From assembly GCA_963810095.1 (NCBI GenBank), contig CAWEMM010000006.1, forward strand, positions 1,419,353 to 1,483,352: a stretch of 64,000 nt of DNA, read 5' to 3'. The position numbers were made by a program, and so were the translations under genes. Of the stretch, positions 4,739 to 61,740 are shown in pieces (position 1 is the first letter of the stretch; every line of letters begins with the position of its first letter). Under the pieces are notes generated by a model. That model was not told where the DNA came from. It was given only the letters and a program-made list of their open reading frames with translations, and ran no database searches. Source of the DNA: an uncultured Chloroflexia bacterium. Its GTDB lineage: Bacteria; Chloroflexota; Anaerolineae; CG2-30-64-16.

Positions 4739-4784
4739 TGTTTGGTGGGCGACCGGCCAGAGCATGACGGGGCAAATGGTGATG

Positions 4785-5081
4785 TTTGTTGGGGGCCGTC
4801 TGGCCCCCAACGCCCCCGACGGGGGGCTGCGCCCCCTCGTCCCCCAAAGGTTAAGGGGACGCGTGGCTTCCGCCAATTGGCCCATTTGAGCGTCCACATG
4901 GCGGGGCCAGACGGAAGCGGCTTGCGGGAAACCGGCATTTTGTGGAAGCACGGTTCTGATGCCGACTGCCGTGAGCGAGTCCGGCTGCTGCCCGCTGTCA
5001 ACACGGCCGGGGGCGTTGACCTTGGGGGTTTCGGGGGCAAGGCCCCCGAGGCGGGGGCGGCGGGGCAAGCCTGCCCCCGCC
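4785..5081 (+). repeat. composite GC-rich palindromic repeat element, copy A (module 1 TTGTTGGGGGCCG..CCCCCAAAGG 4785-4850; spacer with CCGGCATTTT; module 2 GGGGGTTTCGGGGGCAAGGCCCCCGAGGCGGGG 5021-5081)
   Basis: The same modules recur at 14937-15135, 42901-43290, 58390-58476 and 61603-61740. Stacked perfect hairpins read directly. Confidence 0.6.
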
Positions 5082-14936: not shown

Positions 14937-15135
14937 CGCCTGATGACTATTTTGCGGGGGCGCTCTTGCCCCCGCCGCCCCGACGCGAGTGGCTGCCCAC
15001 GACCGACTCATTGGCGGGGAGCGCTCTCGCCCCCGACGCGAGGGGTTGCCACGACCGACTCATTGGCGGGAGCGCTCTTGCCCCCGCCGCCCCCGACCAG
15101 GGGCTGCGCCCCTTGGAACCCCAAAGGCAGCGCTG
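14937..15135 (+). repeat. GC-rich repeat element, copy B, containing a roughly 56-nt tandem duplication (about 2.5 copies, 14957-15124)
   Basis: GCGCTCTTGCCCCCGCCGCCCCGAC...CGACTCATTGGCGGG repeats. Ends with GGGGCTGCGCCCCTTGGAACCCCAAAGG, as in the other copies. Confidence 0.55.
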
Positions 15136-35298: not shown

Positions 35299-35381
35299 GC
35301 CGAAGTGGCGGAACGGTAGACGCGACGGTCTCAAACACCGTTGGGGGTTGCCCCATGTGGGTTCGATTCCCACCTTCGGCA
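35299..35381 (+). tRNA. tRNA-Leu (anticodon CAA), type II with long variable arm, no encoded CCA
   Basis: Cloverleaf folded by hand. Acceptor GCCGAAG/CTTCGGC. Anticodon stem ACGGT/ACCGT with loop CTCAAAC. T-loop GGTTCGATTCC. Confidence 0.9.
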
Positions 35382-35677
35382 CTTCTGATCCCGTCCGGGT
35401 GCTTTTACACCCGCGACGCCCTCGCTTTCTTCTTTTGTCCTGTTTGTTGCGAGGGACCTTGCCCTTCGTGTGAGCCGCAGTTGCCAGCGCAATTGCTCAT
35501 TGCACGTGCGGCGCCATTATAGCAGTCTTGCGGGTTCGGAAGCAAAGGCTGCGTCCCAAAATCTCAAACGGGGATCTGTCCCAGATGCATGACGCTTCGG
35601 GCAGAGCGTCTGAACCGTCCTGCATAGACCACAGGACGCAAAGGGCGCAAAGCCCTGATTCCCTGCGCGAAAGCCAC

Positions 35678-40180: not shown

Positions 40181-40336
40181 GACGAATTAGGACACTGATT
40201 GAACTGTTGAGACGGATGCACCTGATCTCTTTCGCAAAGACAGGGCAGATCAGTTCAATATGCGTCCCATTCCAGGTCAAAACGCTGACCGCGCCGATGG
40301 TCATGACGGTCGCGGGGCCGGGCGCGTACCAAACCC

Positions 40337-42900: not shown

Positions 42901-43290
42901 TTGTTGGGGGCCGCCGGCCCCATCCATTGGATATGTCTTCTGTTGGGGGCCGCCGGCCCCCAACGCCCCGGCCGAGGGGCTGCGCCCCCTCGACCCCCAA
43001 ACTTACTCGGGGAACAGTTCATTTGTGGAGCAACGGCTGGGGCCCACGGACCGCTGCGGGGCTGCCAGTTGCGGGCTTGCACGAGGCCGGCATTTTAGGA
43101 AATGCGCGAGCAATAGCCTCCTCGGGGACATGCAGACGCCGATCTCTTTGGCGATAACTACGCCAGGAGCGTAGCAATTGGGGGTCTCGGGGGCAACGCC
43201 CCCGAGGCGGGGTTGGCAGGGGCCGGCCGGCCCCTGCCAAAAGACCGGAACCTCGAAGCGGGGTGGACGGAGGCCGCCGGCCCCTGCCTA
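42901..43290 (+). repeat. composite GC-rich repeat element, copy C (module 1 duplicated at 42901-43001; module 2 at 43177-43290)
   Basis: Same modules as copy A, including the spacer motif CCGGCATTTT. Confidence 0.55.
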
Positions 43291-45054
43291 ACGCCGCGTC
43301 AAGCCCCACACGAATGCGGCGCCGGCCGCGACGAACAGCCCCGTCGTCAGCCCGGACGACCCACTCGACGTCTGGAACATCATTCCCGCCAGGAATAGCC
43401 CGCCCGCTAGCACGGCCCAGGTGAGCCGGTCGACCGAGCGTTCGAGACGGCGGATCGCCTTCGCCGCATCGGGCGCGAGGGCGGTCTGCTGCACCAACTC
43501 GCCGCGCTCGGCCGCGGTGAGGAACCGGTCGAGTCGCACGGGCAGCCGGAGCGCCAGCTGCATGATGCTGCCCAGCTCGTCTAGCACGCCCCGCCAATCG
43601 CGCGCTAGTTCCTGCGATGCGAGACGCTCGGCGAAGGGCAGCGTCGCAGCCCACGGGTCGAAGTGCGGGTCGAGCGTGGTCGCCATGCCCGACAAGATCG
43701 CGACGGCCCGGATCGCGAAGAGCACGTCGGTGGGGAACTGGAAGGGCAGGTCGTACACCAGGTCCCGGTACTCTCGTATGAGGAACGCGGCCTGCTGCAT
43801 GGCCACGCCGGTGAGTTGGCCCATGCGCACGCCGCCGAAGCGGGCGAACAGAACGTCGTGCAACTCCTCGATCCGCTGCCTGTCTGCCCCCGGCAGCAGC
43901 ACGCCCGCGTCGTAATAAGCCTGCACCAGCCGGCGGGCGTCGCGCGTGCCCACCGCGATCGCCACGTCACGCATCGCACCGCGCATGCTCTCCGGGATCA
44001 CCGCCACCATGCCGAAATCCACGAAGATCAGCCAGAACGGCCGCGGACTGCCGGGCGGTGCCGCGGGATCGCGCGGCAGGGGGTGTACGAACAGGTTGCC
44101 GGGATGCGGGTCGGCGTGGACGAAGCTGTGAACGAAGATTTGCTCGAGGTAGGTGTCGTACAGGCGGCGCGCGACTTCGGCCCCGCTGATCCCCGCAGCA
44201 TCCATGGCCGCCACGTCGTCGATCTTGATGCTGGCGACGTTCTCCAGCGTCAAGACGCGGCGGGTGGTGTATTCCCAGAAGACATCCGCAATGTAGATGC
44301 CGGGATCGCCGGCGAAGTCGTCGGCAAACCGGTCCGCGTTGCGGCCCTCTTCGATGAAATCGAGCTCGGCGCGTGTGGTGCGTGCGAACTCGTCGTAGAG
44401 CCGGTCGAGGTCCGCATGCCGGTTGATGGGGGGGTAGAGCTTTAGCCAGTTGGTCGCCAGGCGCAGTGCGGCGAGGTCGGTTTCGACGAGGAGCTCGATG
44501 CGCTTCCGCTGCACCTTCACCACCACTTCCTCGCCGTCCAAGAGCCGCGCCAGGTGCACTTGTGCCAGCGACGCGGCGGCCTGTGGGGTGGGCGAGAGCC
44601 AGGCATAGACCTCTTCGACCGGCCGCTTGAACTCGCCTTCGATCACGGCGCGGACGTCTTCGAGCGTTTCGGCGGGCACCTCGTCCTGCAGACCGCGCAG
44701 CTCAGACGTGACTTCCGGCGGCAGCATGTCGACGCGAATGCTGAGGAACTGCCCCAGCTTGATCAGAACGCCGCCATAGCGAACCGCCAGGGCCCGATAC
44801 CGCTGTGCATGAGCACGCCAGCGCGCGAGGTTGGTTGCCCGCACGTAGGAGCGGAAGCCGGGCAGGTGGCCCAGCACGAGGTTCCAGCCGATGAAGGAGA
44901 GAAAGACACGCGGCGAAGTAGAACGCGACGCGCAAGTAACGCACGCGGTCGAGCGGCGCGCCGGCCGAAGCTGCCGGCTGTACGAAGTTGGAGAGTTCGC
45001 CCAGCGCAACCTGGCTGGCAGGCGCCGTTCTGGGGCGACGGAAGCGGCGCCCAA
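43288..45054 (-). CDS. ABC1/UbiB-family atypical protein kinase; N-terminal region possibly frameshifted
   Basis: 588-aa ORF with ABC1 kinase motifs (VVKVQRK, HADPHPGN, DFG). The first roughly 50 aa are low quality and ORF 44702..45061 may carry the true N-terminus. Confidence 0.7.
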   Translation of the reverse strand: MGAASVAPERRLPARLRWANSPTSYSRQLRPARRSTACVTCASRSTSPRVFLSFIGWNLVLGHLPGFRSYVRATNLARWRAHAQRYRALAVRYGGVLIKLGQFLSIRVDMLPPEVTSELRGLQDEVPAETLEDVRAVIEGEFKRPVEEVYAWLSPTPQAAASLAQVHLARLLDGEEVVVKVQRKRIELLVETDLAALRLATNWLKLYPPINRHADLDRLYDEFARTTRAELDFIEEGRNADRFADDFAGDPGIYIADVFWEYTTRRVLTLENVASIKIDDVAAMDAAGISGAEVARRLYDTYLEQIFVHSFVHADPHPGNLFVHPLPRDPAAPPGSPRPFWLIFVDFGMVAVIPESMRGAMRDVAIAVGTRDARRLVQAYYDAGVLLPGADRQRIEELHDVLFARFGGVRMGQLTGVAMQQAAFLIREYRDLVYDLPFQFPTDVLFAIRAVAILSGMATTLDPHFDPWAATLPFAERLASQELARDWRGVLDELGSIMQLALRLPVRLDRFLTAAERGELVQQTALAPDAAKAIRRLERSVDRLTWAVLAGGLFLAGMMFQTSSGSSGLTTGLFVAAGAAFVWGLTRR

Positions 45055-46664: not shown

Positions 46665-46670
46665 GCGTCT

Positions 46671-46780
46671 GAAATGGGACACTGATGCAACCGGATCTGA
46701 GACCGATCTATCGTTGCTGCGCTGCCTGCGGGAAAAGATCGTGACAATCAGTCCGATCGGTTCGATCAGTGTCCTATTTC
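46671..46780. repeat. roughly 110-bp element bounded by near-perfect 26-nt inverted repeats (GAAATGGGACACTGATGCAACCGGATC / GATCGGTTCGATCAGTGTCCTATTTC)
   Basis: Read directly in the convergent intergenic region. Confidence 0.4.
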
Positions 46781-46812
46781 ATCAGCGTTGACCAGCCCTG
46801 CGGGGTGAATGT

Positions 46813-48439: not shown

Positions 48440-49075
48440 TCAAATGCCGAGCAGCAGATCGGAAACCTTCGCCGCGCCGACGCTCAGAAAGCCGCCGATG
48501 CTCAATTGGGGCAGCACGAGCGGCACCAGGAAGATCGCCATGAGGATCATCGGGCCGTAGGCCTGCAAGGGAAGCAGCACCGACGAGATACGCTCGCCGA
48601 CAAGCCCGTTCAGCACGGCGAAGCCATCGAGCGGCGGAAGCGGGATCAGGTTGAACAGGAATAGCGTGGCATTGATCAGGATGAACATGTAGACGAAGTC
48701 GAGCACGTTTTGCGACGCGCCCTGCAGCAGGCCCAGGCGATACGCGAGCGCCATCAGGGTTGCCATCAACAGGTTGCTGACCGGACCGGCGGCCGAGACG
48801 AGCGCGTGGCCGACGCGCGGCCCGTACCGCAAGTGATAAGGATTCACCGGCACCGGTTTCGCCCAGCCGAAATGTGCGACCAGCAGGAGGATCGATCCGA
48901 GCGGGTCGAGATGCTTGAGCGGGTTAAGCGTCAGGCGACCCTGCTGCTTGGCCGTGTTGTCTCCCAGCCGGTAGGCCACGAAGGCATGCGCGAGCTCATG
49001 AATAGGGAACCCGACCAGCAGGATCACGAGCAGTGCCGCGAGGGTCGGGAGATCGAGTCCTAAGACGTTTGACAA
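48440..49075 (-). CDS. site-2 protease family (M50) zinc metalloprotease
   Basis: HELAHA motif within a TM helix. 211-aa multi-TM protein. Confidence 0.75.
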   Translation of the reverse strand: MSNVLGLDLPTLAALLVILLVGFPIHELAHAFVAYRLGDNTAKQQGRLTLNPLKHLDPLGSILLLVAHFGWAKPVPVNPYHLRYGPRVGHALVSAAGPVSNLLMATLMALAYRLGLLQGASQNVLDFVYMFILINATLFLFNLIPLPPLDGFAVLNGLVGERISSVLLPLQAYGPMILMAIFLVPLVLPQLSIGGFLSVGAAKVSDLLLGI

Positions 49076-49170: not shown

Positions 49171-51416
49171 TTGCTCCCTATGGCACGCAGCATCGTCGAT
49201 CTAAGCACCCTTCCATGGCGTTTCGGCCAGGTCGCCCGCCAGGGCTTTTCGCACGCGGCCGAGCGACGACCGGCGCGCGGTCGCCAACTGGGAACCCGCG
49301 TCAGTCCCCGGCGACGTGCGAGCGGATCTGCTGGCGACGGGATATCTGCGCGGCCTGGATACACCGGAGGATCTTCCGCGGTCAGGCTGGGTGGACAGCG
49401 TCGACTGGTGGTATCGGGTCGATATCGATCCGGTCGAACCGGGAACCACGGTGGTTCTCGAAGCCGACGGGATCGACTACCTCAGCAGCGTGTGGCTGGA
49501 TGGAGAGTTTCTGGCCGCGCACCAGGGCATGTTTGCGCGGCAGGCACTCGTGCTCCCGCCGCCGCATGGAGGCGCCCGGGAAGCACGAGCTGGCGGTGCG
49601 GATTTGGGGCGCGGGTGCGCTGCCGCGCCTCCCCAACCCTCCGCTGCGCCGGGGCCTGCGCCGGCTGATCTGCGGCCTGGGTGTCGTCGACGAATACTTC
49701 CCCGATCGCCTCGCCACCCCCAAAGCGCAATACAGCTTCGGGTGGGACTTCGCGCCGCGCGTGCTGAGCACGGGCATCTGGGACGGCATCCGCCTGGTCC
49801 ACTGCCGGGGCGCCTATCTTTCCGACGTGCAGGTGCTTGCCGAGCCGCTGAGCGAGGGCGACCCGACCCCTGTCCGCTGGACCGTGCGGCTTACGACCCG
49901 GCGATTCGAGGAGCAGCGGCTCACTGCGCGGGTCGAGCTGCGCACGCTCGAAGGTGAACGGATCCCGCTGGCGCGCGATACCTTCGCGTTGGGCGAGGGC
50001 AATGCGGCGGACCTGGTCTTTGATTCGCCGCGACTGGCCCGCTGGTGGCCGTGGGACCAGGGTGAGCCGGCCCTCTACCGCCTTTCAGTTCGACTGTTCG
50101 ACGAGCGCGGGCCGGCCGACGAGGCGGAGACGGTGGTCGGGCGTGCGCACGGTGGGCCGCGAGCGCTTCAAGAACGGGCAGCCCTGGCGTTTCACGGTCA
50201 ACGGCCGCTCGGTCTTCCTGCGCGGGGCGAACTGGGTGCCCGCCGACATCCTGCCCGGCCGGGTGGCCGAGAATGACTATGCCGGCCTGATCGGGCAGGC
50301 GCGGGCCGGGGGGGTCAACTTCCTGCGGGTGTGGGGCGGCGGCATCCGCGAGAAGCCCGCGTTCTGGGAGCTGTGCAACCGGCAGGGCATCCTGGTCATG
50401 CAGGAGTTCCCCCTCGCTTGCACGTTCCTCGATCACTACCCGCGCGATCCGGGCTACCTCTCCGTGCTCGAGTCTGAGGCGCAAGGCATCGTCCGCGGCT
50501 TGCGCAACCACCCAAGTCTGATCGCCTGGTGCGGGGGCAACGAGATCAGCCCGCAACGTGAGCGGCTTCCTCTGCGTACTATTGAGCGGGTGCTGGCGCG
50601 CGAAGACCCCGGCCGGCCCTGGATTCCGGCTTCTCCGTCGACAGGGCGACATCCACAACTGGGACGTGTGGCATGGCGGCGCGCCCTGGCAGTCGTTGGC
50701 GCGGGTTCGCGCCCCGTTCATGAGCGAGTTCGGCGTGCAGGCGCTGCCCCATGCCGACACCATCGCCGAGATGTTTCCGTCGGGCCCGCCCACGCGGCTG
50801 GACGATGCCGGGTGGGCCGCGCGCAAGCTGCAGGCCGACAAGCTGCGTCACTACTGTGGGCCCTTGCCCGAAGAGGACCTGGTAGCCACGATTGAGGCTA
50901 CTCAGAGGACGCAGGCCGCGGCTCTGCAGGCGGGGATCGAGGCGTGCCGGCTCCGCCGCGAGGGCTCGGGCAGCCCGCGCCCATGCGGCGGGCGTGGCCT
51001 TCTGGCAGTTCAATGAGCCGTGGCCCGCGGTCTCCTGGTCCCTGGTCGACCGGCGCGGCCGGCCAAAGGCGGCCTACAGTATGCTCATGCGCAGCTACCA
51101 ACCCCTGCTCGTGGCGGCCGTGTTCGAGCGGCGGGCATGGCGGGCGGGCGACCGGTTCGACGCCGAGATCTGGGTGGTGAACGACGGGGCGGAAGAAGCA
51201 GCAGAGGGCGAAGTCGAGGCGCTGTTGGACGGGCGCAGCGTCTGCCCACGCAGCCGCGTCGCGGCGCCTCCCGCGTCTGCCCGGCAGGTTGGGGCATTCG
51301 GCGTGCAGTTGGCGGGGCCCCCGGCCACCCTCGCGTTGGCGTGGCGGGCAGGCGGTGCGGTTCTTGCCGCCAACGAGTATGACCTGCAGGTCTACTTGCC
51401 GCCGCCGCAGCCCTGA
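49171..51416 (+). pseudogene. beta-mannosidase-like GH2 glycoside hydrolase, broken into at least 4 frames
   Basis: GH2 segments (RGANWVP, NEISPQRE, FWQFNEPWPAVSWSLVD) spread over ORFs 49316..49957, 49954..50895 and 50892..51416. Confidence 0.6.
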
Positions 51417-51488
51417 TGGGTTGGCTGATGCGCCGCGCCGGCGAACTGCTGCTGCAAATTGGTTGACACATCGGGGTCGTTTCGGATA

Positions 51489-52550
51489 TCCTCGCAAGCA
51501 GATAAAAATGCGGATAGTCGTCAACGGCTGGTTCTGGGACCGGATGACCGCCGGCAGCGGGCAGTACCTGGCCGCGCTCGGCAGCCGTCTTGCCGCGCGC
51601 CGGCTCGGCGCACGAGTTCATTCTGGCGCTGCCGGCGGCGCACGAAGGAGCCGGCGACGCTCGCTCGAGGGTGGCGCACCGTGCGGCGCGGGACGCCGTT
51701 CGACGCGGCTGCAGCGCAGAACCTGGCCAAGCTGTGGTTCGAGCAGGTCACGTTTCCCGAGCTTGTGCCGCCGTCTGGGGGCGGACGTGGGTTTCGTGCC
51801 CTACTGGGGCTCGCCCTGGGCGCGGCCCTGCCCGATGGTCGTCACGGTGCACGACCTGATCCCGCTGCTGCTGCCGCTGTACCGGGGCGGAAGGCTGCAG
51901 CGGATGTACACCGCGTCTCGTCGGCGCGTACGGCTCGGCGGGCCGCGGCGGTCGTGACGGATTCAGAGGCCAGCCGCCGGGACATCGTGGCCCATCTCCG
52001 CGTGCCGGCAGAACGCGTGCATGCGGTCTATCTGGCGGCGGGCCGGCTGCGAGCTGGGCGCGGACGCCGGACGAGCGCGGCCTTCGCGGCGCGCTTGAAC
52101 CTGCCCGGCGGGCCGTTTTTGCTGTACCTGGGCGGCTTTGACGCACGCAAGAATGTGCTGCGGACGCATCGAAGGCTATGCGAAGCTGGCTCGAGCGGCG
52201 TGGCCGCCGAGGGGGCCGAAGCGCCGGCTTCTGGTCGATTGCGGGCCGGCTGCCCGCGGTCGACTCGGACTTTGCGCCGGATCCGCGGCCGGTGGTCCGC
52301 TCGGCTCGGGCGTGGCGGACCGTGTTCATTTTGCCGGCTGGGTGGACGAGGCAGACAAGGCCGCGCTGTACCGGCATGGCAGCAGGCGTCCTGTTTCGTC
52401 AGCGAGTATGAGGGGTTTGGCCTGCCGGTGCTGGAAGCGATGGCCTGCGACCGGGAAAAGAGATCCACGAGACCTGGTAGGTTCAAGCAACCAGGTCACC
52501 AGCTGCGAGATTGGGGAGTCCTGGTGACTGAACCGTGCGAAGACTGAATC
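51489..52550 (+). pseudogene. GT4-family glycosyltransferase remnant with multiple frameshifts
   Basis: MRIVVNGWF N-terminus. C-terminal GT4 motifs (FVSEYEGFGLPVLEAMA) in other frames. Confidence 0.5.
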
Positions 52551-52559
52551 GCGCGGGCC

Positions 52560-53530
52560 CACAACATCCTGACGCGCACGTTCAGCCTGCGGCGCGACCA
52601 GAACCTGCTGATTTTCGCCGACGTCGCGTCGCTGGAAGTGGTGGAAGTGGTGGCGCGGGTGGCGCGCGAGCTCGGCATCAACGACGACCGCGTTTTTCGT
52701 GCCCGCGGGTGCTCCAGCTCGAGATGGGGCCTAACGAAAGCCTGCCGCTGCCTGCCGAGGCCGCGGTGCGTGAAGCCGACGCGATCCTGAGCTGCCTGTC
52801 CGACCAGCCAGAACACCTGCACTATCGGATGCGCGTGCTGCACGCCAGCTGGGGCCGGCGGGCGCAGGCTCGGCCCACGCGCCCGGCATGACGCTCGAGA
52901 TCGCTGCAGCACGCATCGACACCGACTACGCGGCGATCAGCCGAGCAGGCCCAGCTGCTGAGCCTCGCGCTGATCCTGGGCAAGCGGGTCGAGATCGTCA
53001 CGACGGACAGCCAGCGCCGCGAGCACCGGCTGAACGTGCGGGTCGGCGGCTGGGACTATCCGCCCGGCATCAACGACGGGACGATTCGCGAGGGCGCGTG
53101 GAGCAACCTGCCGCCCGGCGAAGTCTACATCGTGCCGCGCGATGGGGACGGCCAGATCGTCGTCAACGGCTCGATTCCCGGCAAGGTGCTGGGGCCGGCG
53201 GAGGAGCTGATCCTGACTTTCCGCGAGGGCCGGTTGGTCGACGTGGAGCCGGAGGATGTGCCCGCCGCGCGTCATCTGCACGAGACGCAGATCGCCTACG
53301 CGGAGCGCCGCGGCGACACCAACTGGTCGAACCTGGCCGAGGTCGGCTTCGGGCTGAATCCCGCGGTGCAAGACCTGACCGGCCTGGGCGATCGTGGACG
53401 AGAAGAAGGCGCACACGGTTCATGTCGCGGTTGGGCACAGCGCCGGGCTGGGCGGCGACGTAGATTCGGTCATCCACTGCGACATGATCGCCAAGAAGCC
53501 GACTGTCTACGTCAACGGCCGGCTCGATCA
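52560..53530 (+). pseudogene. aminopeptidase-like (M29/PepS-like, tentative) remnant with multiple frameshifts
   Basis: Segments IRVGGWDYPPGINDGTIREGAW and DEKKAHTVHVAVGHSAGLGGD lie in different frames. Confidence 0.4.
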
Positions 53531-53975
53531 TGAAGCGGGGCGACTGGCGCATCAACGAGGCGGACTGGCGGCTGGATCACCGCACGGTGACGGTGCCGGT
53601 CGGCTGGTGGGAAAGCATGGGGCAGATTGGCGCGGAGCGGCGCCGCGCACCGAGCGTGAGTCGGGCCGGCTGACATGCGTGTGGAATGCGGGCCGGGGCC
53701 GGTGGGACAGCGCGCCGGTTGGCGTGGAGCAGACGGCGCGCCTGGCCGCTCGCGGTGTACGACCTGCTGCCCGAGAACGGCGTCCCGGTGGGCAAGGCGC
53801 GCGTGGTCGCGCTGGCCGAGCAGGCCGGGCATCCCGTGCGAAGCGCTGCCGCGGCCTGTTCTGGATCATGCTTCAGTTCGACCTGGTCCGGATGTCGCGG
53901 CGCGGTGCCGAGCCAATGCCGACGTAGACCGGAGACGTCGAAGAACGAGGGGTCGTGGATAGCTGGGGAGAGCAT

Positions 53976-55530
53976 CATGACCGCAGTCAAGACCCCGTGG
54001 CGTCAATCGATGCCGGATTTCCTCCAGTTTCTGGATGGAACGCTGGGACACAAGGTCAAGCTCCACAAGGAAGTGCTCGGCTATGACCTGTATCTCGTCG
54101 ATCTTTCGGACTGGAAGCTGCGCTTCTCCGACCGCACGCCCTTGATCATCGTCAAGGAAGCGCGATCTGGCGTCGATGAGTGCCCGCGAGCTCGCGCAGA
54201 GCCTCGCCGAGGTGGTCCGCGGCCAGTCGCTGGCAGAGCGCAACCCCATCGTCGTCGTGCAGGGACCCGGCAGAGCGAACTCAAGGAGCAGCTGCACGCC
54301 GACGTACCAGCCGCTGCTGGTGCTGGACGAGGCGGACGTGCAGGCCGTGCGCGAGTCGCGGCGGCCCTCGGGCGAATTGCTCGACCGGCTCGCGCCGCAG
54401 CTCGACCTGTCGCTCCTGACGCCCTACGAGACGAGCAAGCCCGTCACCGGCTCGCGCTTCTTCGGCCGGGAGTTCGAGGTGCGCCGCATCCTGCAGACGC
54501 GGCGACAGCAATTTCGCCATTATGGGCATCCGGCGCATCGGCAAGACGTCGCTGATGCGCGAGATCGAGCGCCAGCTGAAGGAGCAGGCGCAGGAGGCCG
54601 AGAGCGAAGAGACGCTGGAGCGCATCATCTTTATGGATTGCAGCGCCATCGCGTCGCCCGAACAACTTCATCCAGGAAGTCGTGCGCAAGCTGCGGCCGC
54701 AGGAGCTGACGCGGCTGTCGTCCAAGCAGTACCCGATCTTCTTCCCCGATTTCCTCGAGCGGATGGCGCAGCGCTACGGCGGCCCGATCATGTTCTTCCT
54801 CGACGAGTTCGACAAGGTGCTTACCTGGCACTACGAGGACGACTCGCTGCTCAACGCGCTGCGGGCGTCGAGCAACCAGGGTCACTCGCGCTATATCGTC
54901 GGCGGCTTCCGCGATGTGATGCGTGCGTTCAGCGACCTGGAATCGCCCCTGTACAACTTCGCGCGGCCCATCCGCCTCAAGGAGTTCAGCCGGGAGCAGG
55001 CCGCGGCGATGATTCTCGGCCCGCTGGAGAAGTTGGGCGTGCAGTTCGAGCGCCGCAACGACGTGGTCAACCGCATCTTCGACGAGACCGCCGGCCAGCC
55101 GAACCTGATCCAGTTCTACTGCAGCATCCTGGTCGAGCGGCTGGACCGCGAGGGCAGCCGGCGCATCGCATCGCTCGCCCGAGAGCCTGTTCGACGTCTA
55201 CGGCAACGACGATTTCCGCGCGTTCGTGCTCAGCACCTTCATGGATAACACGACGCACCTGGAGAAGGCGATCGTGTTTGCGGTGATGGCGGACCTGGGC
55301 GCGGAGCATCCATTCGGCGTCCAGCAGATCGACGGCGCGCTCGAACGTCGCGGGCGTCGAAATCCCGCTGTCCGACCTGGACCTTGCCTGCCGCAACCTG
55401 GAGCTTGGCGGGCACCTTCACCTCGCGCGGGCCGATGTTCCGCTTCGCGACGCCGGTTTTCCCGCGCATGCTGAGCGAGAACTACGACGTAGACTACCTG
55501 TTCCGCAAAGTGCTGCAAGAGGGCATCTGA
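53976..55530 (+). pseudogene. STAND/AAA-type ATPase (PF01637-like) with N-terminal domain; many frameshifts
   Basis: FFGREFEVRRIL, IGKTSLMREIE, FFLDEFDKVL and later segments are scattered over at least 6 frames. Confidence 0.5.
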
Positions 55531-55539
55531 CAATGAGCG

Positions 55540-58386
55540 CTAGCATCGAAGCCTGGCGGATCGTTCCCTACGAAGGAGGCGCATCGCCCGTTCAAGAAGG
55601 TGCGGGTGCGCGACGAGGCCGCGGGTGCGCGCGGTCGTGCGGCACCTGATGAACGACGAGTGCGTCGCCTTGCTCGGTCCGCCCATGAGCGAGAAGAGCC
55701 ACCTGCTGCGGGACGTGGCGGAGGCGCTGGAGCAGGGCGGTCGCTTCCGGCCGCTGCATATCGACTTGTGGCGCACACGATCGAACGATGAGGCCGCCTT
55801 CTTCACCAGCCTTGCCGAGTCTGCTGGCCGACGAGCTGCGGGACGCCGGCGCCGCGAGTCCCGACGAGCCGGCCGAGCACGCGCGGTTCCAGGGTTATCT
55901 CGCCGCTTGCGAATGCGAGCGGCCGCAGCCTTGCGCTGCTGATCGATCACCTGCAGGCGCTGCCGCACGACCTCGTCCACAGCCTGCTGCGTCGCCCTGC
56001 GCGCGGCCTACATGGAGCGCGAGGCCGACGCGCCGCACAGCCTGGTCGCGGTGGTCACCGGCGGCATCAACCTCGTCGGTCTGTCCGTCCGGCCCGACCT
56101 CGCCGTTCAACATCGCCAAACCCGTGGTCGCGACACCGCTGACCCTCGAACAGAGCCGCGCGCTGGCCGAGGCGACGCTCAAGCGCTGGAGTGCTCGGCA
56201 TCCGCCAACGGCATGGACCGCTTGCTGAGCCTGGGCGCAGGCGACCGGTACCTGATTCCGCGGCTCTGCGCCGACAGCTCCGAACTGGTCAGCTTGCACC
56301 GCCTGCACCGCGTGACGTCGGCCATTGCGGATCGCGCCGGCGCGGGCGCTCGTCGCCCGCGGACGCGGCCGCCGCCCGTTCGCGCCGCCATCCGCATGAT
56401 CGAGGAAGACCCGGACACGGTGCTGGACGTGCTGCACCTGCTCGACCACGGCTCGCTGCCGCGCTCACGCTCGCGCCAGATGCCGACGCGCACCGGCACG
56501 GACCGGCTGCAGCTCTCGGGCGCGGTGGTCCTGGTCGGATGGGTGCTACGGCTTTATGAACGAGGCGTACCGCGAGGCGTTGGCCGCGCACTTCACCACC
56601 GACCGGGTCGGGCACATGTTGCGGATTGCCGGGCCGGTGGAGCGAGGCGATCGCCTATCTCGCGCCGCAGCGGGCGCGCGTCGCGCGTCCGCAGCTGCTC
56701 GAAGCCATCGTCCAGATCGATCTATGCGAGCTGACTCGTCCGAACAGGCGTATCGGGCTGCTGGCCGACGGCCTGCGGCTCGGCTTCGGCCTGTCGGACA
56801 TCGGCATCTACTGCGGCGCTGCCGGCCGACTGCTCAGCTCGACCGCGTCTATCCGCCCAAGGACGGCGGCCCGAGGAGCACGTCGACCTGCGCGATCCCG
56901 GGTGCGTCGAGGCCCAGACCTTCAACCTGGGCAACTATGCGCTGCGCGGCACCGCGGATGAGGCGCGCCTGGTCGTCGCGCTGGCATCGGCCAGCCGGCC
57001 GCTCGGCGTCGTGACGATCGAACGCTATGTGCAGAACCGCGATCCGCACGAGCTGCCCGACGAACTGCCCGACCTGCTGCGTTTCCTGCAGCACGCAGTC
57101 CGGGGCGCTGGAAAACGTCATCACTCGGGCTGCCTACCGCGCCATCGGACAGGCCGTGCTGGATGCCAAGGCCATGCAGCCGACCGTGGAGCGGGTGCTC
57201 GAGACGGTAGCGGAGGCGCTTGGGCTGCGACTACGGCGCCCTGTATCTGCGGGATGAGACCGCCGCCAGCTGGAGATGGCCGCAGCAGTCGGCAGGGTGG
57301 TGACGGAGGAGTGGCAGGCGCAGGCGCGCTTTCCCCTCGACGGCCGACACCCCGCGGTCACCGCGCTGCTGGAGGGGCGGATGTTGACGGCGCGAGGGGG
57401 CGAGGACGCAGAGGACCGCGTGCTGCACGACCGTTTCGGCCTGCACCGCTACCTGCGCGTCTTCCTGCCTCTGCTCGCCGGCGGCGAACAGCTCGGCACG
57501 CTCGAACTGGGCTACGCGAGCCGGCCGCATGCGCATGTCGGATGAGCTACAAGCGGACGCTGGTCGAGTTCGCCGACCAGGTGGCGATCGCGGTGCATAA
57601 CATGCTGCTGCTGCGGCGGACGGACGAGGCGCTGGCACGCGCAAGCTGGCCGAGCTTGTCGGTGGGCCGCGAGATTCAGCTCAGCCTGCTGCCGAAGGTC
57701 ACGCCGACCGTTCCCGGCTGGCAGTTCGCGGCCATGTACGAGGCCGCCCGCACCGTCGGCGGCGACTTCTACGACTTCTGCGAATTGCCGGGTCCGCCCG
57801 CATCGGCTGGGCGTCGTCATTGCCGATGTGGCGGACAAGGGCGTGCCGGCCGCGCTGTTCATGGCGGTCAGCCGGACGATCATTCGCAGCGTCGCGCTTC
57901 ACCGGCCGCGGCCCGGCCGTCTGCCCTGATGCGAGCGAACCAACTGATTCTCGCCGACAGCCAGGCCGACCTGTTCCTGAGCGCGATCTACCTGGTGCTC
58001 GAGACCGACAACGGGCGCGGATTTCGTTCAGCAACGCGGGGCACAACCGGCCGCTGCTGGTACCGCGCTGCGGACCGCGCAGCTCACGCGAGCTGACCCA
58101 GCGCGGCATCATCCTGGGCGCGTTCGACGAGATCACGCTGCAGGACGACACGGCTGGACCTGGCCGCCGGCGACGTGCTGGTGCTGTACACGGACGGCGT
58201 CACGGACGCGCTCAACGCGGACGGGCGAGGAGTTCGGCGAGCAGCGCCTGTTCGACGTGGTGCGGGGCAGCGCCGCACGGCAGCGCGCAGGAGATCCTGT
58301 GGGCGATCACGGGCGCGCTGGCGGGCTTCATCGGCGACACGGAGCAGGCGGACGACGTGACCTGCGTCGTGATCAAGAAGGACTAG
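55540..58386 (+). pseudogene. multidomain signalling protein (P-loop NTPase - GAF - PP2C/SpoIIE phosphatase); many frameshifts
   Basis: ALLGPPMSEKSHLL P-loop region. GAF segment. PP2C motifs [45 protein letters not shown]. All are in different frames. Confidence 0.5.
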
Positions 58387-58389
58387 GCC

Positions 58390-58476
58390 TTTGTTTGTTG
58401 GGGCCCGGATGACCCTCAACACCTGGTTGCATGGGCCGCCTTGCTGTTGGGGGCCGTCGGGCCCCCAACGCCCCCG
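58390..58476 (+). repeat. GC-rich repeat element, copy D left part (interrupted by the IS481 insertion)
   Basis: TTGTTGGGGCCCGG...TTGCTGTTGGGGGCCGTCGGGCCCCCAACGCCCCCG ends exactly at the IS terminus. Confidence 0.55.
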
Positions 58477-58562
58477 TGTATAGACCGGGGACATAGTAGA
58501 CAGTCGTTCGGAGACATGGTAGACGCTAGAATGGGAATAACTGCCACCGGAAGGAGGCTGAT

Positions 58563-59705
58563 ATGCCCTGGCGAGAGGCAAATGCCATGTCCTTACGACT
58601 TGATTTCGTGACCCGAGCTGGTCACGAAGCTGCTAACGTGCGGGCCCTGTGCCGCGAGTTCGGTATCAGCCCGAACACTGCGTACAAGTGGCTTGTGCGC
58701 TACCAGGCGGCGGGGCCCGCGGGGCTGGCCGATCGCTCACGGCGCCCGAACGCAGTCCGAGCCGACACGCCGCCCGGCCGCGAACAGTTGGTGCTGGCGA
58801 CGCGCCAGGCCCACCCGGCCTGGGGCGGCCGCAAGCTCAAGGCCTACCTGGAGCAGGCCGGCTATGCGGACGTGCCGGCAGCTTCCACCATCACAGCCAT
58901 TCTGCGCCGGCACGGGGCGCTGGATGACCAGGAGGGCGCTCAGCATCGCGCCTTTCAGCGTTTCGAACGTGAGGCGCCCAACGAGCTGTGGCAGATGGAC
59001 TTCAAGGGCCATTTTGCGCTCGGGGATGGTACGCGCTGCGACCCCTTGACGGTCCTCGACGACCATGCGCGCTTCCTGTTGGCGCTGGACGCCTGTGCCG
59101 ACGAGACCCGCCGCACGGTGCAGGCCGCGCTGACCGGCGTCTTCGAGCGCTACGGCTTGCCCGAGCGCATCCTGTGCGATCATGGGCCACCGTGGGGCGC
59201 CCCCAATGCCGGCGACGTGTACACGACGTTGAGTGCGTGGCTCTTGCGGCTGGGCATCGGGGTCGTGCACGGGCGGCCCAAGCATCCGCAGACGCAAGGC
59301 AAGGACGAGCGATTGCATCGCACGTTGCGGGCCGAGTTGCTGCGCCGGCAGACGTTCGCCGATCTGCCGGCCTGTCAGCCCGCCTTCGATACCTGGCGGC
59401 AGATGTATAATGAACAGCGCCCGCATGAGGCGCTAGCCATGCAGGTGCCGGCGGCCCGCTATCGGCCCAGCCCGCGCCCGTGGCCCGCCCGCCTGCCCGC
59501 GATCGAGTATCCGGCCAGCGACCGAGTGCGCCGGGTGCAAGATAAGGGCCAGATCAAAGTCGGCGGCCACGAGTTTCGCATCGGCAAAGCCTTCATCGGC
59601 TACCCGGTGGGCCTCCGGCCCACGAACCAGGACGGCTGCTATGACGTTTACTTCTGCGCCCAGCGCATTGGCCAAATTCAACTATCCGCCGGGCAACGGA
59701 TTTAG
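58563..59705 (+). CDS. IS481-family transposase (DDE integrase core), intact
   Basis: 380 aa. HTH N-terminus and rve core (WQMDFKGHF...LCDHGPPW...NEQRPHEAL). Confidence 0.9.
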   Translation: MPWREANAMSLRLDFVTRAGHEAANVRALCREFGISPNTAYKWLVRYQAAGPAGLADRSRRPNAVRADTPPGREQLVLATRQAHPAWGGRKLKAYLEQAGYADVPAASTITAILRRHGALDDQEGAQHRAFQRFEREAPNELWQMDFKGHFALGDGTRCDPLTVLDDHARFLLALDACADETRRTVQAALTGVFERYGLPERILCDHGPPWGAPNAGDVYTTLSAWLLRLGIGVVHGRPKHPQTQGKDERLHRTLRAELLRRQTFADLPACQPAFDTWRQMYNEQRPHEALAMQVPAARYRPSPRPWPARLPAIEYPASDRVRRVQDKGQIKVGGHEFRIGKAFIGYPVGLRPTNQDGCYDVYFCAQRIGQIQLSAGQRI

Positions 59706-59804
59706 CTCAGCCTGTGGGTAAGGGGCTGTCCGAAAAGTAATCGGGCGGCCCCTTTTTTGCGTGCTTTTCTCGCGTTCTTTAAGGATTCATGGTTTAATGG
59801 GGGC

Positions 59805-61402
59805 ATGAAACGCAAACCTGCTGCCCCCGTCTTCAAGCCCTACACGATGGCTCAGCCGCAGTTGCTGCCGCCGAGCCTGGATGAGTTGATCGAGCCGGAC
59901 CACCTGGTGCGGGTGGTAAATGCGGCGATCGACCAGTTGGATTTGCGGCCGCTGCTGGCGCAGTACCCCGGCGGCGGGACGTCCAGCTATCATCCGCAGA
60001 TGCTGCTGAAGGTGTTGGTGTACGCCTATTGCAGCAAGATCTACTCGTCGCGGCGGATTGCGGCGGCGCTGCGGGAGAACATTCACTTCATGTGGTTGAG
60101 TGGCGGGAACCGGCCGGACTTTCGCACGATCAACGACTTTCGCGGGCAGCGGATGAAGGGCGTGATCGACGCGGTGTTCGCCGAGGTGCTGCAGTACCTG
60201 GTCGAGGCGGGGTACGTGCAGTTGGAGCACTACTTCGTCGACGGGACGAAGATCGCCGCCGATGCGAACCAGCACAAGGTGGTGTGGGCCAAGCGCACGG
60301 CGCGTTACCAGCAGCGGGTGCGGGAGCAGATCGCGTGAGTTGCTGCGGCAGATCGAGCAGGTGAATGCTGACGAGCAGGCCGAGTACGGCGATGCCGATC
60401 TGGAAGAGCGGGGCCGGCGGTGGGGGTGGCGAGATCGACTCGGACGCAACTCAAGGAGCGCATCGACCAACTCAACCAGCGGCTCCGCGAGCGTCAGCAC
60501 CCCAAGCCCGAAGCCCAGGCAGCCGAGAAGGCGCTGAAGAAACTGGCGACGGATTGTCTGCCGCGGTTGGAGAAGTACGAGCAGCAGACCGCGACGCTGG
60601 CGGGGCGGTCGAGCTATGCCCAGACCGACCCGGACGCCACGTGCATGCGGATGAAGGAAGACCGCGGCGCCGAGCGGCCCTGGCCCAAGCCGGCCTACAA
60701 CGTGCAGGTGGGCACGGAAGGGCAATTCATCGTCGGGTTCAGCGTGCACGACCAGGCGGGCGACACCGGGTGCCTGATCCCGCATCTGGAGCAGGTGCGC
60801 CAGAACACCGGCGGCCGCTTACCGCAGAACGTGGTGGCGGATGCGGGGTACGGCAGCGAAGAGAACTACGCCTATCTGGAACAGCAGCAGGTGGGCAACT
60901 ACCTCAAGTACAACACCTTCTACCAGGACACGCATCATTACCGCGACCCGGCCGTGCTGCGGGCGCACCAGTTCCGGGCCGAGAACTTCGCCTACGACGC
61001 GGCCACCGACACCTTCGTCTGCCCGGCCGGCCAGCGGCTGCACTTCCAGTACACCACCCGCTACACCAGCGACAACGGCTACCTGAGCGACCGCCGCATC
61101 TACGAATGCTTCGCGTGTGCCGACTGCCCGCTGCGCAGCCAGTGCACCCGGGCCAAAGGCAACCGCCAGATTCGCATCAGTTTCCGCTTGCTCGCCTACC
61201 GCAAGCAAGCCCGCGACAACCTGACCAGCGCCGACAGGTGAGCGCTTACGCGCCGCGCGCTCCGTCGAGGTGGAAACCGTCTTCGGGCATATCAAACAGA
61301 ATATGGGCTTCCGGAGATTTCACTTACGCGGGCGGGCGAAAGTGAAGACCGAATGGGGGCTCGTGAGCATCGCTCACAACCTGAAGAAGGTGGCGGCCGC
61401 AT
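59805..61402 (+). pseudogene. IS1182-family transposase split over three frames
   Basis: N-terminal part in ORF 59757..60338, middle in 60420..61241, C-terminal tail (RRAVEVETVFGHIKQNMGFRRFHLRG...) to 61402. Confidence 0.7.
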
Positions 61403-61417
61403 AGGCCGCTTTTTTTC
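61393..61417 (+). terminator. intrinsic terminator (GCGGCC-GCATA-GGCCGC + T7) at the IS1182 transposase 3' end
   Basis: Read directly. Confidence 0.5.
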
Positions 61418-61602
61418 TCCGCTTTCCGCGAGCTCCAACTCATCTCCCGCTGACTCCGAATCGGCACAAGAAAGGGGCTGCCTGGATGTTCTTTCCAGAC
61501 AGCCCCTTACCCACAGGCCCGACGCGACGACACCATTCTTTAAGGTGTTCAGGTGTCTACGATGTCCCCGAACACCTGTCTACGATGTATTCGGTCCATA
61601 CA

Positions 61603-61740
61603 CCCCGACGAAGGGCTGCGCCGCTTCGACCCCCTAATTTGCTCGGGCAGCACCGCATCCGCCGTCTAACGCGCACGGCTGCCGGCCGGGACGGGGCCGA
61701 CAGTGGCAGGCTTGCACGAACCGACGCGATGGAAAATGTA
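61603..61740 (+). repeat. GC-rich repeat element, copy D right part (after the IS481 insertion)
   Basis: ACGAAGGGCTGCGCCGCTTCGACCCCCTAATTTGC... continues the module-1 consensus, followed by the CTTGCACGA spacer motif. Confidence 0.5.

Follow-up and report, generated by a model that had tools for sequence, protein, structure and literature searches.

The five adjacent genes that appeared to be decayed between 49.2 and 58.4 kb of the window (the whole 64,000-nucleotide stretch of DNA that was analysed) are, judging from the sequence and its comparison with relatives, very probably intact and conserved, with reading frames broken by insertion errors in the assembled consensus and no gene decay. 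A preliminary description of this block had offered two alternatives, a pseudogenised and horizontally acquired block or a low-coverage assembly region. The second was favoured, in the sense that indels were miscalled in the consensus while the true frames are intact, with low coverage as a possible setting. The insertions were unique to this lineage, nothing else was wrong with the genes, and the same spectrum was present in the background, which together argue for a local defect of assembly quality and not for gene decay.

Frameshift density along the window

The coding signal on the + strand of the block was cut into many frames in a GC3 frame plot and in a codon-usage Viterbi decoding, and the GH2 and SpoIIE/PP2C Pfam domains were each spread across three frames. 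Viterbi frameshifts were tallied from segment junctions, since leaving and re-entering coding cost less than the explicit shift transitions, which were zero in number. Plain tblastn masked most of the shifts because its gapped extensions crossed off-frame GC-rich sequence, and a purpose-written, frameshift-aware dynamic programming was used instead. Protein-to-DNA alignment of this kind against intact orthologues revealed 6 shifts in the GH2 gene, 11 in GT4, 12 in the M29-like gene, 8 in STAND, and 29 in GAF-PP2C. Multiple alignments (MAFFT) with 6-9 related genomes revealed 68 indels in the block that were unique to the window and not a multiple of three in length.

Altogether, about 66-68 frame-breaking indels were located in the block (one per ~135 bp), versus about 12 real frameshifts in the 54.8 kb outside it (one per ~4.6 kb), a ~34-fold contrast in density (binomial p 6e-45). 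The excess over the flanks noted in the preliminary description was confirmed and was stronger than the ~10-fold given there. Its figure of one shift per 300-400 bp fell short of the true density by about 2.5 times, and that of about one per 3 kb elsewhere was too high. It was right that uniform sequencing error cannot yield such a contrast, as the error rate varies along the contig.

The density within the block was uneven, rising from 2-4 events per kb between 49 and 52 kb to 5-13 per kb between 52 and 58.4 kb. The left edge was gradual. The right edge was sharp, and the probability of finding no event in the IS481 ORF at the rate of the PP2C gene was 4e-6. The ORFs of the neighbouring M50 peptidase and IS481 transposase were both uninterrupted, as originally described. 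The features are listed in Table 1.

Table 1. Coordinates of the block, its five genes, and its neighbours in the window
Feature	Position	Strand	Basis
M50 peptidase gene, uninterrupted, left neighbour of the block	48440..49075	-	ORF analysis
GH2-family glycoside hydrolase gene, about 760 aa corrected, ~6 single-base insertions	49180..51466	+	Frameshift-aware alignment, Pfam
Error-dense interval, first to last event	49253..58276	.	68 non-3n indels unique to the window (63 insertions and 5 deletions)
GT4 glycosyltransferase gene, ~318-331 aa in relatives, 8-11 frameshifts	51508..52500 (3' end approximate)	+	Glyco_transf_4 + Glycos_transf_1
Gene of 462-aa conserved protein, weak M29-aminopeptidase resemblance, 11-12 frameshifts	52515..53900	+	Frameshift-aware alignment
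nSTAND1-type STAND NTPase gene, 512 aa in relatives, 8 frameshifts	53977..55530	+	Pfam, frameshift-aware alignment
N-terminal domain-GAF-SpoIIE/PP2C phosphatase gene, 953 aa in relatives, 29 frameshifts	55533..58386	+	Pfam, frameshift-aware alignment
GC-rich palindromic intergenic repeat (REP-like), two copies	58392..58476	.	Repeat families D2/D5, inverted repeat I4
IS481-family element, transposase ORF 58563-59705 intact	58476..61603	+	Inverted repeat I1, Pfam rve/HTH_32/LZ_Tnp_IS481
IS1182-family element, nested within the IS481 element at its 3' end	59710..61518	+	28-nt 93% inverted repeats, Pfam

The five genes and their restored reading frames

Frameshift-aware alignment covered the corrected proteins in full, at 61-92% amino acid identity to intact orthologues, whereas the same procedure applied to 17 other loci gave 0-2 shifts per gene. 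Full-length ORFs were recovered for four of the five genes (GH2, M29-like, STAND, and PP2C) when 63 unique insertions were removed and 5 deletions were padded. The GH2 gene aligned over its full length with the orthologue of locus L004, with 6 shifts and no stops, and removal of the window-unique insertions restored an ORF of 746 aa. Its corrected protein contained PF22666 (GH2_N2), PF00703 (GH2), and PF02836 (GH2_C) in this order, all above the cut-offs. The GT4 gene was the least conserved of the five, and the alignment-based edit did not fully restore its ORF. An ORF of 457 aa was recovered for the M29-like gene, whose product had a partial match to Pfam M29 (E 6.6e-5, 22.3 bits, below the cut-off of 27). 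The corrected STAND protein was 93-94% identical to intact 512-aa proteins; PF20703 (nSTAND1) was sub-threshold on the fragment in the window and is precomputed on these 93-94% identical homologues. The corrected PP2C protein contained a GAF domain (543-680) followed by SpoIIE (747-937). The edit restored its ORF, and the start and stop of this gene and the ends of the GH2 gene were checked.

The original gene identities held for GH2, GT4, the nSTAND1 NTPase, and GAF-SpoIIE. The label “aminopeptidase-like” was backed by the sub-threshold M29 match only, and “mannosidase” was unsupported beyond a generic GH2 assignment. No specific name for any of the five corrected proteins came from NCBIfam, which had no hit for the M29-like protein, and Rfam and tRNA scans of the block returned nothing.

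Selective constraint on the corrected genes

Genuine pseudogenisation would mean that all five neighbouring genes have lost their function and are now degrading, possibly as a sequel to the IS insertion beside them. In its favour, many frameshifts are confined to a single block, and this block adjoins a nested IS481/IS1182 insertion. The GH2 gene is also dispensable in some relatives (absent in locus L008, for example), as would suit this alternative. However, no in-frame stop was found in the ~3000 aligned codons of the five genes after frame correction, and no large deletion was found in any of them. At 1506 outgroup-invariant sites, 25 residues were changed in the window versus 32 in the sister locus L001, and the 363 invariant residues of STAND showed no change in the window versus six in L001. 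Conserved residues were thus kept no less well than in the sister. The dN/dS values of the corrected genes (NG86) were 0.06-0.29, with STAND at ~0.06, the same as for pairs of intact orthologues; this check, suggested in the preliminary description, indicated normal purifying selection and spoke against its suggestion that the genes could be pseudogenised. Substitutions were not in excess either. Window-specific and L001-specific singleton rates were 6.58% versus 7.28% and 3.78% versus 5.45% in the block, and 5.75% versus 4.46% in the flank. Taken with the properties of the indels described below, pseudogenisation is very unlikely.

Synteny with related Anaerolineae

Between 44.0 and 58.4 kb, the window was collinear with L001, and collinearity was also seen with more than 20 other contigs of Anaerolineae (Chloroflexota). 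The loci that shared the gene order of the block included L001, L002, L004, L010, and L034-L037, and all five genes were intact in short-read and JGI/ENA assemblies, with lengths of 761, 318, 462, 512, and 953 aa. The comparison with orthologous regions that had been proposed at the outset thus showed the same order and intact genes in the short-read assemblies. Relatives without the IS shared the same neighbours (UbiB, ABC transporter, PDH-like, and M50 on one side and an LTD-domain protein on the other). No near-identical sequence was found for the block, with nothing above ~79% nucleotide or 94% amino acid identity among genome and metagenome contigs and in a search of 5.8 billion proteins.

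The two IS elements next to the block, and a GC content that was slightly higher there (0.68-0.72 versus ~0.66), are what a horizontally acquired island that arrived with or beside the IS elements would show. Such an origin is extremely improbable, since the same genes, order, and neighbours were present in many relatives that lack the IS, nucleotide identity to L001 was equal in block and flank, and no meaningful match to the block was found in the plasmid collection. The range of GC content in the block (0.65-0.72) was like that elsewhere in the window (0.61-0.74), and a codon-usage model trained on the window followed the coding frame through most of the block. The earlier proposal of horizontal acquisition was accordingly abandoned.

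Only the 3.1-kb IS composite is inserted, and the five-gene block is ancestral. Comparison with related genomes marked the IS481 element as inserted; 57 bp separate the PP2C gene from the gene that follows it in L008. The terminal inverted repeats of the IS481 element were imperfect, 56 nt in length, and located at 58476-58531 and 61548-61603, and no clear target-site duplication was discerned. The pair of REP-like repeats lay directly 3' of the PP2C stop codon, before the IS. The transposase of the nested IS1182 element carried 3 frameshifts; the merged protein matched Pfam DUF772/DDE_Tnp_1/DDE_Tnp_1_6 and aligned in one piece, with 99% coverage, to IS1182 transposases.

Character of the indels

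The indels of the block were strongly biased, with 63 insertions versus 5 deletions (p 8e-14). In the multiple alignments, 52 1-nt and 8 2-nt insertions were unique to the window, against 4 1-nt deletions, while the other genomes in the same alignments had 0-3 unique indels each. Indels of bacterial pseudogenes are deletion-biased, and the 63:5 ratio therefore speaks against pseudogenisation, as does the location of the indels away from homopolymers. The inserted bases (G21 C17 A8 T6) matched the regional composition, and the homopolymer-length distribution at the insertion sites was the same as the background. A CG/GC neighbour bias of the inserted bases, apparent at first, disappeared once left-alignment of runs was modelled. 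The contexts of the block indels revealed no apparent methylation motif or other sequence-context cause. An excess of mismatches, expected for raw-read-like sequence, was undetected in the block by a test that could miss an excess of less than about 1-2%.

An artefact of a different kind would arise if two strains had been co-assembled and the consensus had emitted both alleles at SNP sites. The density of events (~0.7%) is one that divergence between strains could produce, the region lies beside a strain-variable IS insertion, and the insertions were not linked to homopolymers, all of which would fit. However, SNPs between strains would favour third codon positions, and the insertions fell 15 times after position 1, 13 times after position 2, and 24 times after position 3, which fits a uniform distribution (chi-square ~4, p ~0.14). 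Such doubling of SNPs is thus rather unlikely, and random insertion errors in the consensus are preferred.

Frameshifts of the same kind elsewhere

Frameshifts outside the block were almost all +1, as expected from single-base insertions, and were located inside Pfam domains or orthologue alignments. The genes affected encoded a methyltransferase, PrsW, HtrA, a NarL-type regulator, a metallophosphoesterase, a deacetylase, a penicillin amidase, and UbiB. L001, which is from a Nanopore-only metaFlye+Medaka MAG (PMC12313526), also contained a cluster of 1-nt insertions outside homopolymers, 13-15 in number, in genes different from those of the block. When counted from composition, frame breaks numbered 26 per 21 kb in L001, and short-read loci had 0-3. 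The occurrence of one +1 spectrum in unrelated housekeeping-type genes across the window, and in other genes of a Nanopore MAG, is a further argument against pseudogenisation.

The same observations bear on a real and very recent burst of template-independent single-base insertions, too young for substitutions to have followed. Sequence alone cannot strictly exclude such an event, and the boundary at a mobile element would be in keeping with it. To our knowledge, no bacterial process makes insertion bursts of this kind. Since the spectrum also occurred at low density across the window and at other genes in another long-read MAG, and was absent from all short-read assemblies compared, a real burst can hardly have taken place. 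It is likewise very doubtful that a localised insertion-only burst took place next to the nested IS or, in a milder form, that technical errors resulted from the presence of the block in few cells. If the milder form were true, a sweeping IS-mediated deletion, for example, would have left the block in a small fraction of the cells and hence at low read depth.

Discussion

The block resembled the indel errors of long-read (Nanopore or PacBio CLR) assemblies and MAGs, as exposed by truncated-protein tests of the IDEEL type, in that 1-nt indels fragmented genes with otherwise conserved proteins, and in that the pattern, whose rate in such assemblies depends on local read support, was absent from short-read assemblies of relatives. 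It differed in that nearly all events were insertions with no link to homopolymers, in its unusually high density (0.7%), and in having one sharp boundary. The textbook error of a Nanopore consensus is the homopolymer deletion, from which this near-purely insertional, non-homopolymer spectrum departs. A literature search found no description of insertion-only clusters and gave general statements on long-read frameshift errors; such errors have been described, along with unsupported stretches, for metagenome assemblies from long reads, including soil Nanopore metagenomes (PMC13087279). True pseudogene blocks of reductively evolving or IS-expanded bacteria (Mycobacterium leprae, Shigella, or recent symbionts, for example) also have adjacent genes with multiple frameshifts beside IS elements, but the nonsense mutations and deletions that they carry, together with their relaxed dN/dS and lost conserved residues, were all lacking here. 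The block abuts a nested IS481/IS1182 insertion as IS-flanked genomic islands do, but it is ancestral and syntenic in relatives.

We propose that the block is an ordinary, ancestral, and functional stretch encoding a GH2 hydrolase, a GT4 glycosyltransferase, an M29-like protein, a STAND NTPase, and a GAF-PP2C phosphatase. About 65 spurious and essentially random insertions of 1 nt (occasionally 2 nt) would have entered 9 kb of its assembled consensus, and errors of this kind would be about 34 times rarer in the rest of the contig. The contig probably derives from an error-prone, long-read assembly, in which this stretch may have been built or polished from very few reads or left unpolished. 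Read support may have been poor where the stretch adjoins the nested IS insertion, possibly a strain-variable region, while the multicopy IS481 next door was presumably polished well. Consensus errors can account, only by inference, for both the sharp right edge at the IS and a clean IS481 beside an IS1182 with three frameshifts.

The tests applied here, namely synteny, indel polarity and context, stop count, retention of conserved sites, dN/dS, and ORF restoration, need no reads. Error density within one contig, probably a long-read one, can differ more than 30-fold, and genome-average quality scores give no protection against such local artefacts. An annotation pipeline would label the five genes, although conserved, as pseudogenes or break them up into dozens of short hypothetical ORFs, and any conclusion from this contig that genes have decayed, that the genome has been reduced, or that IS elements have inactivated genes would be wrong.

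Frame disruption and insertions in the block

The GC content of the window was ~67%, which gave a strong frame signal from GC by codon position. A GC3 frame plot and a codon-usage Viterbi model trained on the long ORFs of the window revealed continuous + strand coding from ~49.25 to 58.38 kb, with the frame switching every 40-570 nt, and Pfam searches of the three raw + frames found the GH2 and SpoIIE domains each spread over different frames. The neighbouring M50 and IS481 ORFs were unbroken, and the fragmented block between intact neighbours was thus confirmed. Ordinary tblastn read across the shifts and was replaced by a custom protein-to-DNA alignment permitting frameshifts. Against the orthologues of the related locus L004, all five block genes aligned at full length (61-92% amino acid identity) with no in-frame stops and with 6 (GH2), 11 (GT4), 12 (M29-like), 8 (STAND) and 29 (GAF-PP2C) frameshifts. 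The same method gave 0-2 shifts per gene in 17 related loci, mostly traceable to an imperfect query.

MAFFT alignments with 6-9 relatives showed 52 one-base and 8 two-base insertions unique to the window versus 4 one-base deletions; the other genomes had 0-3 such unique indels. In the block, 63 of the 68 events not divisible by three were insertions (p = 8e-14). The event density was 7.4 per kb, versus 0.22 per kb outside the block (ratio 34, p = 6e-45). Within the block it rose from 2-4 per kb at 49-52 kb to 5-13 between 52 and 58.4 kb, and the left edge of the dense interval was gradual. At the adjacent event rate, a clean IS481 ORF had a probability of 4e-6. The inserted bases (G21 C17 A8 T6) resembled the regional composition, and homopolymer runs at the insertion sites (length 1, 29; 2, 15; 3, 7; 4, 1) followed the positional background. 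An apparent CG/GC neighbour preference disappeared once left-alignment in runs was modelled. Insertions could also arise if the consensus had emitted both alleles at strain SNPs, but the slots by codon position (15/13/24) did not depart from uniform, which argues against this improbable mechanism.

Orthologous loci

The conceptual STAND protein retrieved 23 loci in species-representative genomes, all Anaerolineae/Chloroflexota MAGs, and 10 more from metagenomes; no near-identical reference for the window was found among genome contigs, metagenome contigs or proteins. By blastn, the sister genome L001 was collinear with the window over 44.0-58.4 kb and again from 61.8 kb, and the whole block was collinear with many other loci. 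The order in short-read and JGI/ENA contigs was UbiB, two ABC transporter genes, a PDH-like gene, a 185-aa gene, M50 and then the block genes, whose intact products had 761 (GH2), 318 (GT4), 462 (M29-like), 512 (STAND) and 953 (GAF-SpoIIE) residues. Comparison with these orthologous regions found all five genes intact and in the same order; the block is therefore ancestral, and the proposed horizontal acquisition was rejected.

GH2 varied in its presence in a cluster that was otherwise conserved, being absent between M50 and GT4 in four related loci (L008, L013, L014 and L023). Anaerolineae and Caldilineae-like contigs retained STAND and GAF-PP2C as a pair (orthologues in L001-L037). The STAND protein was unusually conserved (93% amino acid identity at ~79% nucleotide identity, dN/dS ~0.06), and the N-terminal ~500 residues of PP2C had no Pfam match.

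Selection on the block genes

A true pseudogene block with ~66 indels is expected to show nonsense mutations and deletions as well as additional substitutions and a loosening of constraint; none of these was present. Relative-rate counts against L001 found no substitution excess on the window lineage in the block (window- versus L001-specific, 6.58% versus 7.28% and 3.78% versus 5.45%; flank, 5.75% versus 4.46%). Of 1506 residues that were invariant across six outgroup orthologues, 25 were changed in the corrected proteins of the window and 32 in L001 (STAND, 0 versus 6). The NG86 dN/dS check on the reconstructed ORFs gave 0.06-0.29 for pairs with the window, indistinguishable from pairs of intact orthologues, so no relaxed selection was indicated. 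With the 63 unique insertions removed and the 5 deletions padded, GH2 regained an ORF of 746 aa and the M29-like gene one of 457 aa, and STAND and PP2C returned to full length; only the poorly conserved GT4 was incompletely repaired. Pseudogenisation, as suggested in the preliminary description, was rejected on the dN/dS values, the lack of stops, the retained invariant residues and the restorable ORFs.

Frameshifts elsewhere in the window and in other assemblies

Nine genes beyond the block had a frame change inside a Pfam domain or orthologue alignment. The shifts outside the block, including three in the IS1182 transposase, were nearly all +1, as from single-base insertions; therefore, the same error type occurs contig-wide, with a hot spot in the block. 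A second, milder +1 cluster lay at 26.1-29.1 kb (- strand; four in ~3 kb, HtrA-like to deacetylase), and error density is not constant along the contig.

Features in and around the block (window coordinates)
Feature	Position	Strand	Remark
Methyltransferase	16.88 kb		frameshift
PrsW	22.39 kb		frameshift
HtrA-like	26.1 kb	-	frameshift
NarL-type regulator	27.16 kb	-	frameshift
Metallophosphoesterase	28.15 kb	-	frameshift
Deacetylase	29.06 kb	-	frameshift
Penicillin amidase	42.2 kb		frameshift
UbiB	44.9 kb		frameshift
61.9-kb gene	61.9 kb		frameshift
tRNA-Leu (CAA)	35299-35382		in 0.7-kb non-coding gap
M50 peptidase gene	48440-49075	-	unbroken
STAND NTPase and GAF-PP2C	53977-58386	+	adjacent, 2-3 nt apart
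IS481-family element	58476-61603		56-nt imperfect inverted repeats
IS481 transposase ORF	58563-59705		unbroken
IS1182-family element	59710-61518		28-nt, 93% inverted repeats
IS1182 transposase	59829-61398		3 frameshifts
REP-like copies	4783-4850, 14945-14981, 15057-15127, 42936-43003, 58392-58476
Related inverted REP-like copies	near 5006-5078 and 43162-43291
51-nt inverted-repeat pair	40181-40231 and 46733-46783		relatively AT-rich
Window-specific insertions	46668-46797		19 + 37 + 33 nt versus relatives

L001, the closest relative, is a Nanopore-only metaFlye+Medaka MAG (PMC12313526). Within 2.5 kb of this genome (295-2823), the genes for UbiB and the ABC transporter carried 13-15 non-homopolymer 1-nt insertions that were unique to it. 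The interval corresponds to ~44.3-47.0 kb of the window, where the genes were clean; this cluster is the same type of artefact in another place. When frame breaks were counted from composition only, short-read loci had 0-3 per 21 kb, two further Nanopore MAG loci had 4-7 and L001 had 26. Long-read metagenome assemblies are documented to contain frameshift errors and stretches that lack support (PMC13087279).

Nested insertion sequences and interpretation

The IS1182-family element was nested in the 3' end of the IS481-family element, and only the IS481-family segment was an insertion relative to relatives. Related genomes lacked the composite at the corresponding position, where the L008 spacer was 57 bp. 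Two copies of a REP-like, GC-rich palindromic intergenic repeat family (core TGTTGGGGGCCGTCNGGCCCCCAACGCCCCCG) lay after the PP2C stop codon, ahead of the IS481 end. The 51-nt repeat arms each occupied a separate intergenic region, at a distance of 6.5 kb from each other, and the second was inside the window-specific intergenic insertions. The tRNA-Leu was the sole Rfam/ARAGORN match in the window.

Judged from the sequence comparisons, the block is very probably a place where consensus insertion errors cluster locally, in genes that are otherwise intact and under selection. The alternative of a low-coverage assembly region is favoured, and very few reads most likely went into assembling or polishing this stretch. 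The block adjoins the nested IS insertion, which is strain-variable, and polishing may have worked better on the multicopy IS481. The IS1182 transposase aligned in one piece (99% coverage) to intact IS1182 transposases, and its frameshifts are either further consensus errors or signs that this IS copy has decayed. In the former case, the error-rich zone would reach ~61.5 kb and enclose IS481 as a clean island.
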